The notes under the pieces: generated by a model
The model's database searches: none
Seen by the model: the letters and a program-made list of their open reading frames with translations, nothing else
Told to the model about the DNA's origin: nothing
In this document: piece by piece, positions 12,833-60,573 of the stretch
How positions within the stretch are numbered: the first letter of the stretch is position 1
How the letters are laid out: the number at the start of each line of letters is the position of its first letter
Source: an uncultured Gammaproteobacteria bacterium
GTDB lineage: Bacteria; Patescibacteriota; Microgenomatia; JAMCZE01
Assembly: GCA_964641255.1 (NCBI GenBank)
Contig: CAZXMM010000001.1
Span: forward strand, 745,890 to 809,889
Length of the DNA stretch: 64,000 bases
Direction: 5' to 3'
Translations under genes and position numbers: made by a program

Positions 12833-13477
12833 CTAATCAAATAAGTAGCCTTCTACATCTGAATCAAAATCAGGCCCATCATCGTCAGGGTGCTTAGCCA
12901 TACTAGCAAGATCTTGGGCAAATTGATCAGAATTCAAATAATCTGAATTCCATCGTCTGGAAAAATTCTCAAGCAAATTAACTACTGTCTCTAAATTGCT
13001 CTTTCTATCCTGGCCCTTATTAGATCTGACTTTAAGTTCATCTAATCTAGAGACATCTCCTTCAACTAAAATAAATGACTCACTTTCAATTCGGCCTTCT
13101 GCCCACATTTTTCTAACAAGTTCAATCTTTGCTACCTTTTTGGCTTTGTTGTATGTCCCGGCAAGTTTGAACTGCGGTACTTTCCTCTCACCATCATTAA
13201 AGCTATAACCCATCACTTTCATGTTTGGCATTGATTCTGACGCGAAATCAATTCGATCTGGATCTTCGTCGGATAGATAGATCCGTTCCGCAGCATTTTC
13301 ATTTCCATCTGGAGTAAGTCGCCAAATAGTTTCTTCGTCTCGGGAATCAAGATAGGGAACTCCTATTGCCGCTGCTCTGTGTCTAAATGTATCAGCTATA
13401 TCGACTATCCGGTTTATACTTTGTGACAAGCGAGTTTCTGGAAGCACGGGGATTTCTCTAGCATCAGAGTTTAGCAT
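12833..13477 (-). CDS. Hypothetical protein with acidic C-terminus, flanked by direct repeats
   Basis: 214-aa ORF, C-terminus DDDGPDFDSDVEGYLFD, no recognisable motifs. Confidence 0.5.
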   Translation of the reverse strand: MLNSDAREIPVLPETRLSQSINRIVDIADTFRHRAAAIGVPYLDSRDEETIWRLTPDGNENAAERIYLSDEDPDRIDFASESMPNMKVMGYSFNDGERKVPQFKLAGTYNKAKKVAKIELVRKMWAEGRIESESFILVEGDVSRLDELKVRSNKGQDRKSNLETVVNLLENFSRRWNSDYLNSDQFAQDLASMAKHPDDDGPDFDSDVEGYLFD

Positions 13478-49394: not shown

Positions 49395-49423
49395 TTGACA
49401 ATCTTCCAACAACAAGGTACATT
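49395..49423 (+). promoter_or_regulatory. Sigma70-like promoter TTGACA, 17-nt spacer, TACATT; the -10 box ends 7 nt before the ATG at 49431 (leaderless arrangement)
   Basis: TTGACA 49395-49400, 17-nt spacer, TACATT 49418-49423. Confidence 0.45.
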
Positions 49424-49430
49424 TAAACTT

Positions 49431-50273
49431 ATGAATAATAAGTACGCTCAAGATGCTATTTCTGCATTAATCTTTATTATTGTTCTTCTACTGGGGCTTT
49501 TTGTTTATGGCAAGTTTGGACCGGGATTACCTCTGTCAGTTAATCAGATTACTACTAACAAAAACGATTTGTTTACTGTCACTGGGGAGGGGAGAGTCAC
49601 TGTTAAGCCGGATGTTGCCGAGGTTAACTTTGGAGTTAACACTACAGGGGCCACGGTAGCCTTAGTCCAAAGCCAGTCGAATACGGCCATCAATCGAGTG
49701 GTTGAAGCAGTCAAAAAACTAGGAATTGAGGCGGCAGATATCAAGACCACCAACTATAATATCTATCCCCAGTACGCTAATGAGGGCATTCCTACCCCGA
49801 TGCTGCTGCCCACAGCTGAACCGACAGTGGCTGCGGAGGAAAAAATGGCTATAGCTCCGATGCCTCCCAAGCCAGGAACACCGCGCATTACCAGCTACAG
49901 TATGAATATTAGTGTGATTGTTAAGGTTAGGGACCTAAACAAAGTCAACCAGGTGGTCGATACAGCCACAGCTAACGGCGCCAATCAGGTAGGAGGTATC
50001 AACTTTACTGTCGATAAACCCGAAATCTATCAAGCTGAAGCGCGGAAAAAAGCTGTCGAAAATGCTAAAGCGAAAGCCAATGATTTGGCTAGTGTCGCCG
50101 GTATCCAACTAGGTAAGGTAGTCGGAATTTACGAAAATCCCGGCTTCTATGGTCGGAACTACCCACTGGCGATGAAAGCAGAGGGGATGGGTGGGGACAT
50201 GGGTGGTACTCAAATCGAGCCGGGGTCCTCAGAAATCACTACCCAAGTGACCTTGAATTACGAGACAAGATGA
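49431..50273 (+). CDS. SIMPL-domain (DUF541, BP26/OMP28-like) protein
   Basis: N-terminal TM/signal segment and FTVTGEGRVTVKPDVAEVNFGV, the family-typical start. ATG 49431 is preferred over the track start TTG 49395. Confidence 0.6.
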   Translation: MNNKYAQDAISALIFIIVLLLGLFVYGKFGPGLPLSVNQITTNKNDLFTVTGEGRVTVKPDVAEVNFGVNTTGATVALVQSQSNTAINRVVEAVKKLGIEAADIKTTNYNIYPQYANEGIPTPMLLPTAEPTVAAEEKMAIAPMPPKPGTPRITSYSMNISVIVKVRDLNKVNQVVDTATANGANQVGGINFTVDKPEIYQAEARKKAVENAKAKANDLASVAGIQLGKVVGIYENPGFYGRNYPLAMKAEGMGGDMGGTQIEPGSSEITTQVTLNYETR

Positions 50274-50478
50274 GTGGCAAAACTAAAAAGAAGGCAGACT
50301 ACCAGCGAAAAGGGAGCAGACAGAGACGAAGCCCAATAAAAGAAAAGGCTTGTCAAAACGGTTAAGTGCGAGGGATTTTGTAAATAGGGTTTGGCGTGGA
50401 TGGCGTCTAGGCCAGAGGGGAAGCCAAGAACATACCATAGGGCCAAAGAGCGAATCTAACTAGGGAGGAGGGTGATGG

Positions 50479-51441
50479 CTAGGAAAGAGCACTGGAGCGG
50501 TCTAAAGAGTCGCTACGGGCAATTTGTAGTTGCTCTTGTTGTAAATCTTTAACTCTTTCATAAGCAGCTGGAGCGAATTGAGCAGATAAACCAATAATCT
50601 CTTCTAAGTCCCCTTCACGCACGTTAGCATCCCGAAGATTTGTTTTCAGTTGAAGTTCTTCTCCACTTTCTCTACAGAGGGCAGAAAATAGGTTAGCACA
50701 CCCCAGTCTCTCATCGACAACACAATCGGCTACATCGTCAATGTACTGTAGGGCTATAGCCATGGCTACAAACCTATTACGCGCATCTATGTATCCTGAT
50801 CGATCCATAAAAGATGCATACCTAAAATCGAATATCCCTTGAGAGGCAGCTTGATTTGTTATCGTCCGGTGCCTAATCATCTCGGCTGACCCGACGGAGC
50901 TCCACCGGCTCTCCACCTCAAACATCACGGAAAAAGCTTCTCTTTGTGTATAGTCAATATCGGCCAGCAATAAACTTTGCTCGCTCGGTCTATAAAGGCT
51001 AGAGGCAGCTAGCTTTCTTGTAATAGCAAATAGCTCACCGGTGGTAAATTTTATTTTCGAGTCTTCACAGGGAATGCTCAAAAGTTTTCTTATAAAGTGG
51101 TTTGGATTTCTTGCCCCCAATGATTGCCTGAATTCAGGTCTGTGAGTATCAAAATAGTGATCAGTTAACCCTATTACCCTACGCCAGACCGTGTTTGCCA
51201 CCATCAAAGATTGTCTATCGGCCTCGAGTGTGTGTCTGTCAACTAATACTCCAGTTACGGCCTCTATAAGCAACCTATCAATTAAAAGATTGCCAGCGTC
51301 AATTTGTGATGACTCCTGATCTACTATTTGTCGCTCCCTTCGAGACAGTCCGGCATATAGTGATCCGCCCTCTACAACACTCTGTTCTTTAGCTTTGCAG
51401 AAAGACATTGTTAACAATATCTTACCAAAACCCACAAACAA
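50479..51441 (-). CDS. Hypothetical protein with Asp-rich DDxxD-type motif (AIALQYIDDVADCVVDERLG); possible divergent isoprenoid-synthase-fold protein
   Basis: 320-aa ORF. The motif pattern partly parallels the second Asp-rich box of the squalene/phytoene synthase family (GxAxQxxNIxRDxxEDxxRG). This is weak. Confidence 0.35.
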   Translation of the reverse strand: MFVGFGKILLTMSFCKAKEQSVVEGGSLYAGLSRRERQIVDQESSQIDAGNLLIDRLLIEAVTGVLVDRHTLEADRQSLMVANTVWRRVIGLTDHYFDTHRPEFRQSLGARNPNHFIRKLLSIPCEDSKIKFTTGELFAITRKLAASSLYRPSEQSLLLADIDYTQREAFSVMFEVESRWSSVGSAEMIRHRTITNQAASQGIFDFRYASFMDRSGYIDARNRFVAMAIALQYIDDVADCVVDERLGCANLFSALCRESGEELQLKTNLRDANVREGDLEEIIGLSAQFAPAAYERVKDLQQEQLQIARSDSLDRSSALS

Positions 51442-51497
51442 TTACCCTTAGTTTACTAATCTACTGGCCCATAGTATAATAGGGGAGTGAAAGTCAT

Positions 51498-51860
51498 ATG
51501 CTTCAAGATTTAGAGGCTAATTATCTTCGTCTTCCCGATGAATTTACAAAATGTAGACTACGGGTATTTAATATTCGAACCAGAAGATTCTTGATACCTA
51601 TTAGCCAGGGAGATAGCCTAGTTACAGCAGTGCAAATAGCTGTCATTGGTGACTCTTCGCAGCACCCGAAACTTGCAAATTATTTTGAGATGAGCGCCGC
51701 TAAAAAGATAGAGGAAGATATGGATGGTTTCACCACGGCCGCCCAAATTGACACCACACCACAACTCCTGTCTATTCAGCAACGCTTTTGCTCTGATCAC
51801 TGCCAAGAAACCTGTGCGCTATTTTCCAGCACGAGACAGCGTCGCACCAGACGCGGATAG
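51498..51860 (+). CDS. Hypothetical protein
   Basis: 120-aa ORF, no motifs. Confidence 0.25.
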   Translation: MLQDLEANYLRLPDEFTKCRLRVFNIRTRRFLIPISQGDSLVTAVQIAVIGDSSQHPKLANYFEMSAAKKIEEDMDGFTTAAQIDTTPQLLSIQQRFCSDHCQETCALFSSTRQRRTRRG

Positions 51861-52010
51861 AGAATAGGACAGTGGACTTCACCTTTGGAGCAGGCTTAGC
51901 CCTCGCTGCAGCTGGAGTTGAGGCTTCCCAGGGTAATATTCAAAGGGCGTCAAAGATGGATTGATGCCGCCCGTAAAACTAGAAAGAAATAGCTTACTGC
52001 CTACCTCCCT

Positions 52011-52598
52011 CTAGGCGGTAGTCACATTGAGGAGGGGAGAGGAAACGGTTTTTCCGGTTTGAACACTCCCCTTGTGAGCAAGGTACTCCGCCTGCAGTCT
52101 GCCACTTAATCTTTGGGCCAGCAAATCTTTAATGCTATAGAGTCTTTCTTCCTCGGGCTGGCTTAGATGTTGACCATCAAATAAACTTTTCTTGCGAGTT
52201 TTACTTTGCTCAAGGATTAAAACAGCCTCTTTCCAAAGCAAAAAATCTTTTTGCTTTTTGGCCTGTAAAGGGTACTTTTCAAAATGAGGAATAAGCTTAG
52301 TAATGATATCCATGCGGTCTCTGATATTAAAGTGTACCGCACCGTGTTTAACAATGGCATTAAGCCTTCCTGCTTGAAAAAACTTCTGCACCTTTTCTAG
52401 GATGGGTCTGTCATCTTCACGCATATGAAGGGAAAAATCAACCACCCAGTAACGATACGTAGAAATAGAATGCTTTCGTTTTTTATTCTCAGTGTTCACG
52501 ATCAGACAAAAACACCCTTCGCCGTCAATAAGTCCGGTCACATACCAGGGATCCAAACCAATCTTATTCTTTTGGACCTTTTTCATGGAATTCATCAA
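52011..52598 (-). CDS. LAGLIDADG-family homing endonuclease (single-motif type)
   Basis: LDPWYVTGLIDGEGCFCL is a canonical LAGLIDADG box; 195 aa. The start overlaps the upstream xer gene by about 35 nt. Local GC is lower than surrounding genes. Confidence 0.8.
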   Translation of the reverse strand: MMNSMKKVQKNKIGLDPWYVTGLIDGEGCFCLIVNTENKKRKHSISTYRYWVVDFSLHMREDDRPILEKVQKFFQAGRLNAIVKHGAVHFNIRDRMDIITKLIPHFEKYPLQAKKQKDFLLWKEAVLILEQSKTRKKSLFDGQHLSQPEEERLYSIKDLLAQRLSGRLQAEYLAHKGSVQTGKTVSSPLLNVTTA

Positions 52599-53517
52599 AT
52601 ACCTTCTTTAGCTGCGAATTGGTCACGTGAGTATAAATCTGGGTGGTCGCTACGTTTTTATGACCCAGCAACTCTTGGATCGAACGCAGGTCGGCTCCAT
52701 TTCGTAATAAATCAGTAGCTAGCGAATGTCGTAAAGTGTGTGGCGTAGCGTCGACAGGAATGCCGGCTCTTGCAATATATTTTTTAACCATCCTTTGAAT
52801 TGATCTAGGTGTCAAACGCATTCTCTCACCGTCATTATCAGATTCTCCAGCTTTTCCAGCTCTTCCGGCACGAGTATGAATAAAAAGTGGCTTCCAGGAA
52901 TCCTGACGCGTTGTAAGGTACCTAGCAAGGCATTCGGTGGCTCGAGTGGAGATAAATACCACCCTGGCCCGGCCACCTTTGCCAATAACGCTAAATTCTC
53001 TGGTTTCTAAATTTACTTGCCCCCGATTAAGTTTGGTCATTTCTGCTACTCGCAGGCCCGTACTGAATAATAATTCCAGAATGGACCGATCTCTTAACCC
53101 TTGCTCTGTACTAGTATCGGGTTTGGCAAAAAGTTGCTCTAAGTGATCGCGAGTTAAAAATTTCAAACTGCGGTCGCGATTTTTACCCAGTTCAATTTGG
53201 TCTGGCGCCAGCGTCTTATGACCCTTCTTCGTGAGATATCTGACAAATGCCCGAATGGCAATTAAAAAATAGCCTTGAGTTGATTTCGCTAACGGCCCCT
53301 TGATAGGATTTACGTAACGGCTTAAATAGAGTCGATAGTCTCTAATGATGTCCTCGGTCAAATCCTCGGGTTTGAGGACCTTACCCTGGCTAAAAAGCCA
53401 GCCACTGAAAGTCTCTAGATAATAACCATACATTTTGACCGTGAGTGGCGCCAGGTTGCGATCAAGCTCACAATATTCGAGGAAATCATTAATGTACTCC
53501 ACGAGTAATTTGTCCAT
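52564..53517 (-). CDS. xerC: Tyrosine site-specific recombinase, XerC/XerD-like
   Basis: N-terminal core-binding LxxFLxY..., C-terminal HTLRHSLATDLLRNGADLRSIQELLGHKNVATTQIYTHV (R..HxxR..Y). Confidence 0.85.
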   Translation of the reverse strand: MDKLLVEYINDFLEYCELDRNLAPLTVKMYGYYLETFSGWLFSQGKVLKPEDLTEDIIRDYRLYLSRYVNPIKGPLAKSTQGYFLIAIRAFVRYLTKKGHKTLAPDQIELGKNRDRSLKFLTRDHLEQLFAKPDTSTEQGLRDRSILELLFSTGLRVAEMTKLNRGQVNLETREFSVIGKGGRARVVFISTRATECLARYLTTRQDSWKPLFIHTRAGRAGKAGESDNDGERMRLTPRSIQRMVKKYIARAGIPVDATPHTLRHSLATDLLRNGADLRSIQELLGHKNVATTQIYTHVTNSQLKKVFDEFHEKGPKE

Positions 53518-53543
53518 AGAGTGCCGTTTTTATATTGTTAAAT
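53516..53543. other. Candidate dif-like recombination site ATAGAGTGCCG-TTTTTA-TATTGTTAAAT immediately upstream of the xer start
   Basis: The right arm TATTGTTAAAT matches the XerD-arm consensus TTATGTTAAAT at 9 of 11 positions. The left arm is poorly conserved. Placement next to xer parallels xerS/difSL-type single-recombinase systems. Confidence 0.25.
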
Positions 53544-54577
53544 CAATCTATATCACTCTTTTCCAAACGTCGTAATATCCTATAGTAGGGGAGGTGGGTG
53601 CCCAAACAACAGAGTGTACTGAACAATTTTACCCCCGCACCTACGAAATGCATTATAGTCCCAAAATAAGAACAAGCCAACAGAAGGGTTAAAAACACCC
53701 TTCTTCTCTCAGTTCGTGCTCGAATTACGTATAAGATACAATTTACGACACTAACACTTGAGCTTCCCTAGGGCTAACGGACCACTAAACTGGCACTTTG
53801 GTCAGACTGCAATAATGGGTCCAAGTTTCTCTCGAGAGAGAACCGTCTTTGACTCTTTTCGCCAGTGGCCGTACTATTTGCAAGCAAAAGACTGATTGGT
53901 GGTACGAATTATTTCCCGAATCACTTCCTTTACAGGGACTAATGGGTTTTTTGCCACGGATGAAGGCACACTTCTACTCTACTTTAGCGCCTGGATATAT
54001 TCTAAACCTTAAAGTTTGTGCGTAATTATTAGGGTTTAAAGTATCTTTGACAGGACCATTTTTGGAGCATAGTAGTGCGCTATTCCTATCTTTTCGAGCC
54101 TAATAACCCCGCTGATGGCACTACGACTAAGGGTCAGAGAGCATACCTAAAACTAGATGCTATTTAGCCCGTTAATACGCTCTATGTGATAAGTTTTGTG
54201 CGCAGTAAATGGCCACGCCCATCAGAGGAAGTTAGCGGGATTCGGCCTATTGCTACGCTCTACTTTAACACTTTGCGCTCACATTTTTACCTCCCAGGTA
54301 GGAGCGAGCAGAAGGTTTTGGAGCATAATAGTAGTCCAGACAGAGCAAAGCGAAGCTAAATAGGAATGCTGTTCGGGTTTTTTATGCTCTTTTATACCCT
54401 ATAACTGCAAGTTAGGCACGGATTAATGATATAGTTCGATATCCATGAAAAATACACGCTCAAACCTATGAAAACTCATCCACACGAGGCTATTTCTAAA
54501 CTATAGGGTGTTTTCTACTGCTCTCTTCCCCGCCTCAGTCAAGGAATTTTTTCCAAAAAGGAAGAAAAATTTTTAGA

Positions 54578-55441
54578 TTATCCACTCCAGCTGGTGGTTA
54601 ACAGTGTTAAGACAAATACTACGACGGCTACAATGACAAACTCGTTAGCCACTCGCCTATTAAGTTTCTCTCCCAAATGATATTGCACGATGCCGACTAA
54701 TTCATAAAAGATGGCTGTTAAGAAAAGCGCAAAAACAGAAACGCCGACCGGCCAAAAAGACAAAATGAAGGCCACCTCGGCCACTACCAGTGCAATAATT
54801 AAAGAGAAGTTCCGCACTTCACTCGTGATTTTTTCCTCAAGATTAACACTCCAAACGGCCTGAAAAGTAAGTAACAAAGTGACAGCAAAAACGAAAAGAA
54901 AATTGATATGACTCTCAAGATGAAAAGATGCAATGACAATGTAGAAAAGTAGACCCGTAGCTACACTCACCAGAAAGCCAATTGAGTGGGCCACCCGCAG
55001 TAGCTGAATACTCCGCTCTGCTGCCACATTAAAGATATTGGCTGTAAGTAGGCTCGCGTAATAGCCAACAATAAAGATCACTAGAAAAAACATTTTGACC
55101 AGCGTAGCCAATAAAAAGCTAGAGTCAGTTGAGAGTGATAGCCAAAGAATACTATCTATCCGGCTGGGTAACAGCGGATTAACCAGCGCCGCTCCAATCG
55201 CAAAAAGCGTAGGTAAAATGGGCAGGGTCAACCACTCGATACCGTTAAAATCCTCATCCCTGATCGCCCAGATAGTAGCAATTGTAGCTAAAAGAGCAAA
55301 GAGTGGCACTCGAATACGCCACTGCAAATACTGGCCAAAGGCCAGCCGGATAAGAATTATCCCGACCGCAAGCAGTCCGGTGGCAATGACAAAACGCTGT
55401 CGCTTGGAGAGAATGAGAAATTTAGGAAGAGTCAGTGTCAT
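54578..55441 (-). CDS. Hypothetical polytopic membrane protein (start uncertain; the track ORF extends to 55567, overlapping ruvC)
   Basis: At least 8 predicted TM helices, no known motifs. Confidence 0.5.
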   Translation of the reverse strand: MTLTLPKFLILSKRQRFVIATGLLAVGIILIRLAFGQYLQWRIRVPLFALLATIATIWAIRDEDFNGIEWLTLPILPTLFAIGAALVNPLLPSRIDSILWLSLSTDSSFLLATLVKMFFLVIFIVGYYASLLTANIFNVAAERSIQLLRVAHSIGFLVSVATGLLFYIVIASFHLESHINFLFVFAVTLLLTFQAVWSVNLEEKITSEVRNFSLIIALVVAEVAFILSFWPVGVSVFALFLTAIFYELVGIVQYHLGEKLNRRVANEFVIVAVVVFVLTLLTTSWSG

Positions 55442-55451
55442 CAGATCAATT

Positions 55452-56003
55452 TTACTGCTTTTTCTTTTTGGCTGCTGTCTTGGAAATAACTGCAGTTGGG
55501 GCGATAGTTTTAAGATAGTGCGCGATGGCAATGGCCAGGCCGTCAGCAGCATCATCGGGCTTAACAATCTGTTTCATTTTTAAATGACTCATCACACTGG
55601 CCTGCATTTGCTTTTTATCTGACCGACCGAAACCAGTGAGGGCAAATTTTACTGACAGACCCTGATACTCAAACAGCGGGATTTTGTGTCTTGCCACCTC
55701 AGAGAGAATGATCCCCCTGGCCTGTCCCACAGCAATCGCAGTTCTAGCGTTGATACCAAAAAAAAGTTGTTCCACCGCTACCACGTCCGGTCGGTGTTCC
55801 CGCAAAATCTTGCCAATTTCTTCTTGCAGATAAAGCAGTCGCTCCCCCATCTGGGTGTCCATCTTGGTTTCCAGACAGCCGGCCCGAACAAAAGTCAAAT
55901 CACTGCCCTTACCATTGGCTGTGGTTTTTTCCTTACTTTTTTTTACTTCTACGAGGCCGAAGCCAAGCCGGGCAGTCCCGGGATCAAGTCCTAAAATTAG
56001 CAT
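55452..56003 (-). CDS. ruvC: Holliday junction resolvase RuvC
   Basis: MLILGLDPGTARLGFGLVE, plus catalytic acidic residues. Confidence 0.9.
   Translation of the reverse strand: MLILGLDPGTARLGFGLVEVKKSKEKTTANGKGSDLTFVRAGCLETKMDTQMGERLLYLQEEIGKILREHRPDVVAVEQLFFGINARTAIAVGQARGIILSEVARHKIPLFEYQGLSVKFALTGFGRSDKKQMQASVMSHLKMKQIVKPDDAADGLAIAIAHYLKTIAPTAVISKTAAKKKKQ

Positions 56004-59110: not shown

Positions 59111-60573
<1,463 letters not shown>

Follow-up and report, generated by a model that had tools for sequence, protein, structure and literature searches.

A conserved xer gene linked to a dif-like site, beside a variable gene junction, in a Patescibacteria genome

Does a tyrosine recombinase gene that lies beside orphan genes and a homing endonuclease gene mark a mobile element, or does it belong to the chromosome in which it is found? 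We address this question for a 4.3-kb block (positions 50274–54577) in a 64-kb stretch of Patescibacteria DNA (GenBank contig CAZXMM010000001.1; the whole stretch is called the window below). A preliminary description had read the entire block, between a SIMPL gene and a DUF5656 membrane protein gene, as a putative accessory island with its own tyrosine recombinase and possibly att-like ends. Our analysis indicates that the block probably consists of two parts: a conserved module (52564–54577), formed by the Xer-family recombinase gene, xer, and a dif-like site in the noncoding DNA upstream of it, and beside it an unrelated, variable segment (50274–52563). The ORF map bears out the open reading frames (ORFs) that had been listed, and the "noncoding tail" upstream of xer (53518–54577) has no ORF longer than 58 amino acids (aa) and was left empty by the gene caller of the source assembly. 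Logan contigs from SRR14932609 and SRR14932608 match the window at 100% identity, and across the locus two independent assemblies agree fully, without a variant junction.

Xer and its ORF-free leader keep their place across relatives

The earlier call of a Xer-like recombinase is confirmed by a Phage_integrase domain together with a SAM-like N-domain in 52564–53517 (Pfam, E = 5.9e-41). The NCBIfam models for XerC (TIGR02224, residues 11–313) and XerD (TIGR02225, residues 11–312) score 230 and 226 bits, against equivalog cut-offs of 335 and 330; the XerA model matches over its full length with 198 bits (cut-off 220), and the XerS model reaches 129.8 bits (cut-off 267). These profile scores, which lie under the equivalog cut-offs, would place the protein with XerC/XerD at the family level only. 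The catalytic R-K-HxxR-H-Y set is legible in the translation (GLRVAE, GKGGR, HTLRH, LGH and IYTH), and xer is the one xer-like gene in the window.

Relatives of the locus were collected by scanning species-representative genomes and metagenome contigs with the Xer protein, which yielded 127 loci, and by exact protein look-ups, which added 5 further loci; gene order was read by tblastn with the window proteins. The order yebC–(ruvC)–DUF5656–(ORF-free gap of 0.6–1.1 kb)–xer–(variable segment)–(SIMPL)–gyrA–gyrB is present in L001–L018, L024, L037–L039, L049–L051 and L130. Across these syntenic loci, from genomes labelled Woesebacteria, Blackburnbacteria, Shapirobacteria and WWE3, the recombinase and the ORF-free region keep their place and orientation while Xer identity falls from 77% to ~48%, and the gap was without a long ORF in 13 of the 13 relatives examined. 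Where extra genes have been inserted after DUF5656 (L006 and L008), the ORF-free region with its conserved blocks B and D remains beside xer; block A, too, keeps to the module where other genes lie between it and DUF5656, as in L008. Because the ORF-free region stays with xer when the neighbours change, it belongs to xer and not to DUF5656, and the synteny across relatives identifies both xer and the tail as core. Pseudogene remnants in the tail or in the purine-rich spacer next to SIMPL were considered and rejected, as tblastx gave no signal beyond the nucleotide blocks and the relatives have no ORFs there.

Gene order kept across distant relatives had been named in the preliminary description as evidence against an island; for the recombinase and the tail it is what we observe, and for these the island claim falls. 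The recombinase is of full-length XerC/XerD/XerA type and is not part of a variable unit, being found in all relatives, including one (L002) with an empty junction. Presence/absence polymorphism among relatives is confined to 50274–52563, and it is only for this segment that an island interpretation is partly supported. The block as a whole is not deviant in composition: it has a G+C fraction of 0.442, compared with 0.461 ± 0.020, and its tetranucleotide distance is exceeded by 17% of background windows. The direct repeat that had been proposed as att-like does exist, in that CAGACAGAG is present exactly twice in the window (50317 and 54337), but it is at chance level. Two copies of this 9-mer, which was chosen post hoc, were also present in 7 of 100 shuffles of the window, and because the score of 20 for the gapped alignment of the repeat copies lies within the range of shuffled controls (19.5 ± 2.4), we ascribe the repeat to chance. 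Alignment of the left 205-bp spacer with other 1,060-bp windows scored 20.7 ± 2.6, and the copy at 54337–54364 sits opposite gaps in every close relative.

These results bear on the possibility that an integrated mobile element occupies the whole of 50274–54577, with att-like repeats at its ends, and either carries its own integrase or exploits Xer to integrate at dif. Such an element would explain the grouping of orphan genes with a recombinase and a homing endonuclease, and the short imperfect direct repeat near both ends. With xer and the tail in the syntenic core, a repeat at chance level, a normal composition and two identical assemblies, and with a single dif-like site in 64 kb from which the cargo is separated by xer, we consider this reading of the whole block largely refuted and its probability very small.

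A dif-like site linked to xer

Conserved blocks in the noncoding region were found by sensitive blastn and by MAFFT alignment of six close relatives, and are read here in the orientation of xer. Block D holds a dif-like core, GTGTCGTAAAT-TGTATC-TTATACGTAAT, in which two inverted 11-bp arms flank a 6-bp centre; within it, the 17-mer GTCGTAAATTGTATCTT (53733–53749) is invariant in the six close relatives. The homologous block of distant relatives, GTCGCACAA-TAATAC-TTTTGCGAC, has inverted arms of 9–11 bp. Whereas the 6-bp centre differs between lineages, the arms of relatives are symmetric at 8–11 of 11 positions, with a perfect palindrome (11/11) in L014 and a concerted change in both arms of L130, from GTCGT...ACGAC to CACGT...ACGTG. 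Near the centre the strict complementarity of the arms is lost, which fits a protein-bound DNA site better than an RNA stem. In E. coli dif, the XerC arm and the centre are similar to the left arm xTCGCAyAA and the TGTAT-like centres seen here.

A position weight matrix built from 14 sites had its top match of the whole 12–21-kb locus at such a site, with a score of at least 20, in 58 loci, more than 40 of which had not been used in building it. These loci span Microgenomates-, WWE3- and Parcubacteria-like genomes, and the site is always upstream of xer, at a distance of 59–1,243 bp: 180–1,240 bp in the Microgenomates-like group and ~60–470 bp in the Parcubacteria-like loci that reach a score of 20, where weaker sites come as close as 33 bp. 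When a leave-one-out matrix was run over the window, 53724–53751 scored 23.5, the next best match 10.9 and the background −34 ± 10. The dif-like site is unique in the window and in each 12–21-kb relative locus.

Xer sites consist of 11-bp half-sites around a 6-bp centre (PMC5357621), and recombinase-linked dif sites are a hallmark of the single-recombinase Xer systems XerS/difSL and XerH/difH (PMC5357621; PMC1914069). Block D has the corresponding architecture of a chromosomal dif, with two half-sites of ~11 bp, partial dyad symmetry and a 6-bp centre, and it is physically linked to xer, a linkage that is kept across the clade. Literature searches found no description of a Patescibacteria dif site or Xer target. 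We propose that Xer protomers would bind the two 11-bp arms, that two copies of the site, as in a chromosome dimer, would synapse, and that strand exchange across the 6-bp centre would resolve the dimer. The gene and its site would thus form a self-contained recombinase-plus-site module of the XerS/difSL or XerH/difH kind.

The likeness to XerS/difSL of streptococci and lactococci (PMC1914069) lies in a recombinase gene preceded by a conserved recombination-type site with clade-wide linkage, in imperfect inverted arms around a central region, and in the comparative logic by which both sites were found. The systems differ in several respects. The protein studied here has 317 aa and scores best against the XerC/XerD models, and is not of the XerS/XerH lineage (~356 aa); the centre of difSL has 11 bp instead of 6 bp; and difSL lies in a conserved stretch of ~50 bp directly before its gene, whereas block D is 180–1,240 bp away, within a motif-rich leader of ~1 kb, and not at a skew-defined terminus. 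In Helicobacter and Campylobacter, difH is likewise close to the gene of its recombinase, with which it may constitute a single genetic module (PMC5357621), but XerH is XerS-like in size, the phylum is a different one, and the difH arms (AGTTATGAAAA and AAAAGTTTGA) are unrelated in sequence to the site described here. Canonical XerCD/dif of E. coli and B. subtilis shares the 28-bp, 11+6+11 layout with partial dyad symmetry; it differs in that here the site is physically linked to xer, the only such gene in the window, the arms are near-symmetric in most relatives and there is no skew switch nearby. Archaeal XerA/dif also pairs a single recombinase with a 28-bp site and has been reported to be FtsK-independent (PMC5357621), although the lineage considered here is bacterial.

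Some Parcubacteria-like relatives (L028, L029, L031, L090, L091 and L093) carry two tandem xer paralogues. A dif-like site, ACTTCGTATAATGTAGGTTAATCCACGT, precedes the first paralogue of L031 by ~53 bp, and weaker dif-like versions lie 42–52 bp upstream in L090 and L117; the tandem loci suggest a module in the style of site-xerC-xerD. The idea that two xer genes go with asymmetric arms was dropped, as the two features did not correlate cleanly enough.

The position of the site relative to the replication terminus was assessed from strand skew. The raw cumulative GC skew of the window peaks at ~50.5 kb, and this peak tracks gene orientation, which switches four times. A terminus at 50.3–50.5 kb, which the peak and the convergent gene orientation at that point had suggested, was rejected: the raw skew follows the gene strand, and fourfold-degenerate sites favour no switch. 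At these sites, genes on the + strand and genes on the − strand each keep one coding-strand skew in every block, and a model without a switch fits best, with a residual sum of squares of 75.0 against at least 81 for any switch position. The same behaviour continues for 10 kb past the window edge. In 24 relatives pooled over ±10 kb of the site, xer-sense genes have a skew of +0.07 on the side away from xer and of +0.05 on the side towards it, and antisense genes have −0.38 and −0.24, respectively; in four strong-skew genomes (L001, L005, L008 and L039) the skew is unchanged across the locus. Skew is weak in the genome of the window, of which ~84 kb out of at least 950 kb were covered. Two further asymmetries were noted over the same DNA: the − strand is uniformly G-richer at fourfold sites, in the window as well as in the adjoining 10 kb, and the 7-mers AGGGGAG (14:2) and GGGGAGA (11:1) show a strong preference for the + strand of the window. 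FtsK-orienting (KOPS-like) polar motifs were also sought and rejected, with no convincingly skewed purine-rich octamer in the 64 kb.

Several of these observations weigh against the proposal that block D is the target of Xer and serves dimer resolution. No skew switch is seen at fourfold sites over a span that reaches 53.7 kb to one side of block D and 19.6 kb to the other, so that neither an origin nor a terminus lies within it. The distance of predicted bacterial dif sites from the shift point is 0–1.39% of the genome length (1 sigma) and does not exceed 3% (PMC3025954). A 950-kb contig on record encodes an identical LAGLIDADG protein, and 53.7 kb is ~5.6% of its length; with the reservation that skew is weak in this genome, the site therefore does not have the terminus position of a classical dif. 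Its uniqueness was checked over ~84 kb, whereas the genome has at least 950 kb, and its xer-proximal arm is degenerate in this genome, with 6 of 11 symmetric positions compared with 8–11 in relatives. A 28-bp site would also leave another ~900 bp of conserved noncoding DNA unaccounted for. Finally, binding and cutting by Xer are predicted from sequence features, and the 28-mer could instead be an operator.

In that case the palindromic site would serve autoregulation of xer or another regulator, and the real dif, if there is one, would lie elsewhere, at the terminus. The absence of a skew switch, the degenerate proximal arm in the window and the operator-like position in Parcubacteria-like loci, 33–80 bp from the xer start, are in keeping with such a role. 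We nevertheless regard it as unlikely. In the clade of the window, 180–1,240 bp separate the site from xer, and the site lies upstream of block E, the putative promoter; it has an 11+6+11 layout with a freely varying 6-bp centre and a left arm that is similar to the XerC arm in E. coli dif; and a second functional copy elsewhere would risk large deletions or inversions of the chromosome.

Other motifs of the ORF-free leader

Beyond block D, the noncoding region is a series of colinear, nearly invariant blocks with variable spacers between them (Table 1). Block E, which is held at the same distance from xer in five relatives, is a probable promoter element of xer. A purine-rich box comes after block D in every close relative and in most of the distant ones. 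The middle region contains TAYGCTCCAAA-type copies, in the window including 54061–54071 and 54317–54327, whose number differs among relatives. In the distal cluster, the pair of TTTTCAC-type boxes was found in 14 loci, always in xer-sense and with a spacing of 21–23 bp, and many relatives carry a perfect DnaA box, TTATCCACA, instead of the DnaA-box-like 9-mer of the window. We conclude that the tail is a set of predicted linear protein-binding motifs, which in the proposed module would act as regulatory or accessory sites.

Conserved short blocks separated by variable spacers are typical of structured RNAs, and a colinear, ORF-free region of ~1 kb with this organization might encode a large structured noncoding RNA. 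No Rfam family matches the tail even at E ≤ 10, and none matches the loci of relatives at the gathering threshold; folding-energy z-scores are near 0 on both strands for the window tail and most relatives; and RNAalifold gives no consensus structure for the A–C region on either strand. Block B, moreover, is inverted in distant relatives while its neighbouring blocks are not. With these results against it, a structured RNA is highly improbable.

An imperfect inverted partner of block B (13/16) was seen just upstream of xer at 53540–53555 of the window, and also in L001 (9162 and 9951). Together the pair brackets ~870 bp that include the dif-like site; the partner is missing in other relatives. 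An invertible segment acting through this pair was rejected, given that the partner is not conserved in other relatives and that the two assemblies are identical.

The distal cluster raises the further possibility that the tail is, or contains, a DnaA-dependent element, either oriC or a titrating or reactivating locus of the datA/DARS type. The 9-mer is conserved and is a perfect TTATCCACA in many relatives; TTTTCAC boxes 21–23 bp apart and an AT-rich direct repeat lie in an AT-rich ORF-free region; and gyrB, gyrA and holB are close by, with dnaB 14 kb away. Near-consensus DnaA boxes (up to one mismatch) occur at 0.86 per kb in the gaps and at 0.29 per kb in the flanks, but there is usually one per gap. 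In addition, the skew does not change sign at the locus, either in the window or in the 24 relatives, the flanking genes are co-directional and not divergent, and neither dnaA nor dnaN is among the genes annotated in ~84 kb. On this evidence a DnaA-dependent element is improbable, and oriC in particular was rejected for want of a skew switch and on account of the usually single near-consensus boxes.

The 7-mer GTGAAAA/TTTTCAC itself occurs once in the 64 kb (59148–59154, − strand), compared with 13.8 ± 3.7 times in shuffles. The frequency of ATGAAAA in the window is normal, as are GTGAAAA counts in the loci of relatives. The scarcity looks like genome-specific avoidance, perhaps of a restriction-modification target.

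An analogy may be drawn between the module and the plasmid sites cer and psi, in which a Xer core site has a few hundred bp of noncoding DNA on one side. A flank of this kind could bind accessory proteins, which would allow resolution independently of the terminus. The present case differs in its chromosomal context and its longer accessory-like region, and sites for PepA, ArgR or ArcA were not recognised. If the analogy were to hold, Patescibacteria might resolve chromosome dimers by a portable xer-plus-site module away from the terminus, with the ~1-kb leader as accessory DNA; we put this forward as speculation and think it unlikely. Were it true, the TTTTCAC pair, the DnaA-box-like 9-mer and the repeated half-site-like motifs would confer resolution selectivity or coupling to the cell cycle through DnaA. 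FtsK-guided positioning at the terminus would then not be needed, and the module would be a chromosomal counterpart of cer/psi-type control.

Table 1. Features of the locus in window coordinates.
Feature	Position	Strand	Evidence or occurrence
SIMPL gene	49395–50273	+	ORF map
Convergent intergenic spacer, SIMPL stop to DDxxD-gene stop; left edge of variable segment	50274–50478	.	
DDxxD orphan gene, 309 aa	50479–51408	-	
orf120, orphan ORF on the strand opposite to its neighbours	51498–51860	+	
Free-standing single-motif LAGLIDADG homing-endonuclease gene	52011–52595	-	PF00961
xer, 317-aa Xer-family tyrosine recombinase, core syntenic gene	52564–53517	-	
ORF-free region upstream of xer ("noncoding tail"), 1,060 bp	53518–54577		
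Block E, CCCCTACTATAGG, ~60 nt upstream of xer ATG; probable promoter element	53579–53591	-	L001, L003, L004, L006, L039, same distance
Purine-rich box, CTGAGAGAAGAAGGG, ~11 nt to the xer side of block D	53698–53712	-	
Block D, dif-like core, 11+6+11, inverted arms	53724–53751	-	
Middle region, 2–5 same-orientation copies of TAYGCTCCAAA / TACGCACAAA type	54061–54327	-	
Block C, CATAAAAAACCCGAA	54372–54386	-	Exact in L001–L004; near-exact in L039, L051, L130
Distal motif cluster (block B, two TTTTCAC-type boxes, DnaA-box-like 9-mer)	54427–54484	-	
Block B, ATATCAAACTATATCA, ATATCA-N4-ATATCA	54427–54442	-	
Two TTTTCAC-type boxes, 23 bp apart, here TTTTCAT	54445–54451, 54468–54474	-	
DnaA-box-like 9-mer, TGKGGATAA in xer-sense, TCATCCACA on + strand	54476–54484		
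Block A, TGAGGCGGGGAAGAGAG / TGAGGYGGGGAAGAGAG, distal end of conserved noncoding module	54521–54537	-	
DUF5656 membrane protein gene, core flank	54578–55567	-	PF18900; syntenic in relatives

The variable xer/SIMPL junction and the wider setting

On the other side of xer, the convergent 3′–3′ junction with SIMPL contains different cargo in different relatives. In L002 the two genes are ~10 bp apart, and in L017 and L037 xer adjoins gyrA. The junction holds ORFs of 142 and 309 aa in L001, a 440-aa multi-pass membrane ORF and a 355-aa ORF in L039, and a complete rRNA operon (16S, tRNAs, 23S and 5S) in L003 (11776–19470). The 23S gene of this operon carries a group I intron at 12980–13202, and the operon is on the strand that fourfold-site skew suggests to be lagging. 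A sensitive nucleotide search of 50274–52563 against L001–L047 gave nothing significant. What is inserted in the junction differs from lineage to lineage; in the window it is a LAGLIDADG gene shared with several lineages and two species-specific orphan genes.

The homing endonuclease named in the preliminary description is supported by a LAGLIDADG_1 domain in 52011–52598 (Pfam, E = 1.9e-21) that covers profile positions 2–102 of 102, with the motif GLIDGEG and its acidic residue intact. The gene is free-standing and sporadic in distribution. Its ATG lies inside the last codons of xer (..FH-G/E-K), and the two genes are likely to be co-transcribed and translationally coupled. A LAGLIDADG gene is found at the identical position in at least four other lineages, with homologues of 63–72% identity in L049/L050, in L130 (xer–endonuclease–SIMPL) and in L131/L132 (xer–endonuclease–gyrA); it is absent at the junction in L001, L002, L003, L039 and L051, and a homologue of 40% identity occurs in an unrelated genomic context. 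Xer identity among the carrying lineages is ~70%. Because the endonuclease has diverged about as much as xer, long vertical co-residence is suggested rather than recent homing. In its intact ORF just beyond a conserved gene and its patchy distribution, the gene is like other free-standing homing endonuclease genes (phage T4 seg/mob; I-CreI-like single-motif LAGLIDADG), from which it differs in being chromosomal, in Patescibacteria, and in having its start codon within xer. Homing by the protein is predicted from its domain; as a further part of the speculation on a terminus-independent module, the xer-coupled protein may in one subclade have been recruited into the module.

The DDxxD protein and orf120 are orphans: neither has a match in Pfam, NCBIfam, PHROG or PADLOC, and neither has a counterpart in L001–L047 (tblastn, E ≤ 1e-5) or in L049–L051, L072 and L130–L133 (E ≤ 1e-4). 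For orf120, which is called as a gene in the source assemblies and is a candidate gene, no family library gave a match and tblastx found no similarity in relatives. The ORF of the DDxxD protein contains DDVAD and has 320 aa when extended to 51441 from a TTG start. This protein finds only itself among 5.8e9 clusters and 23 remote homologues among 1.84e9 representatives, and it has no homology to the 309-aa cargo protein of L001. The alignment of homologues has the conserved motifs DxxFDxxR and QYxDDVxDxxxD. In an AlphaFold2 model built with this alignment (predicted local distance difference test score 86, predicted template modelling (TM) score 0.86), Foldseek finds only prenyl-diphosphate synthases or terpene cyclases among its top 50 matches in the PDB, at modest TM scores of 0.45–0.54 (E 2e-3 to 1e-1), and profile searches of the PDB give weak matches to farnesyl diphosphate synthases at the second Asp motif (E ~0.2). 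The model thus points to a class-I terpenoid-synthase-like fold that, like that of class I terpenoid and trans-prenyl diphosphate synthases, is all-alpha with two Asp-rich motifs at comparable positions. The protein differs from these enzymes in its first motif, DxxFD and not DDxxD, and in its tiny family of 24 representatives among 1.84e9; the protein and 16 homologues have no match in Pfam, its polyprenyl_synt and terpene synthase models included, and the protein has none in NCBIfam.

The left edge of the variable segment is as purine-rich as had been noted: on the + strand, purines make up 69.8% of 50274–50478, which places this spacer in the top 0.04% of windows of 205 bp. In relatives, neither tblastx nor blastn detected anything similar to it.

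On the far side of the module, DUF5656 (called at 287 aa in the source assembly) is followed by RuvC, an 82-aa ORF and YebC, all on the − strand; SIMPL, DUF5656, RuvC and YebC are also matched by Pfam among the window proteins. Replication genes cluster around the xer module, namely gyrB, gyrA, holB and dnaB, the last of these (L134:4298–5647) outside the window, ~14 kb beyond DUF5656. Elsewhere in relatives, the gyrA match of L007 (12065–15922) is in three pieces with gaps of ~0.2 kb and ~1 kb, and the tgt match of L004 (3896–5105) is in two; these splits may be inteins, inserted endonuclease genes or frameshifts.

As an "island", then, the finding would have been ordinary and is largely wrong. 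This is worth knowing, since in genomes of candidate phyla a tyrosine recombinase beside orphan genes is readily mistaken for a mobile element. In the LAGLIDADG gene coupled to xer, a housekeeping gene carries along a selfish or domesticated endonuclease, and the case is a neat one. Block D offers a concrete candidate for the site on which Xer would act in Patescibacteria; across much of the group it is linked to xer, and it sits in a conserved noncoding region of unusual length, apparently away from any switch in strand bias. Should a role in dimer resolution be confirmed, the idea of a recombinase-plus-site module would reach beyond XerS and XerH, and one would have to ask how bacteria with such small genomes control resolution.

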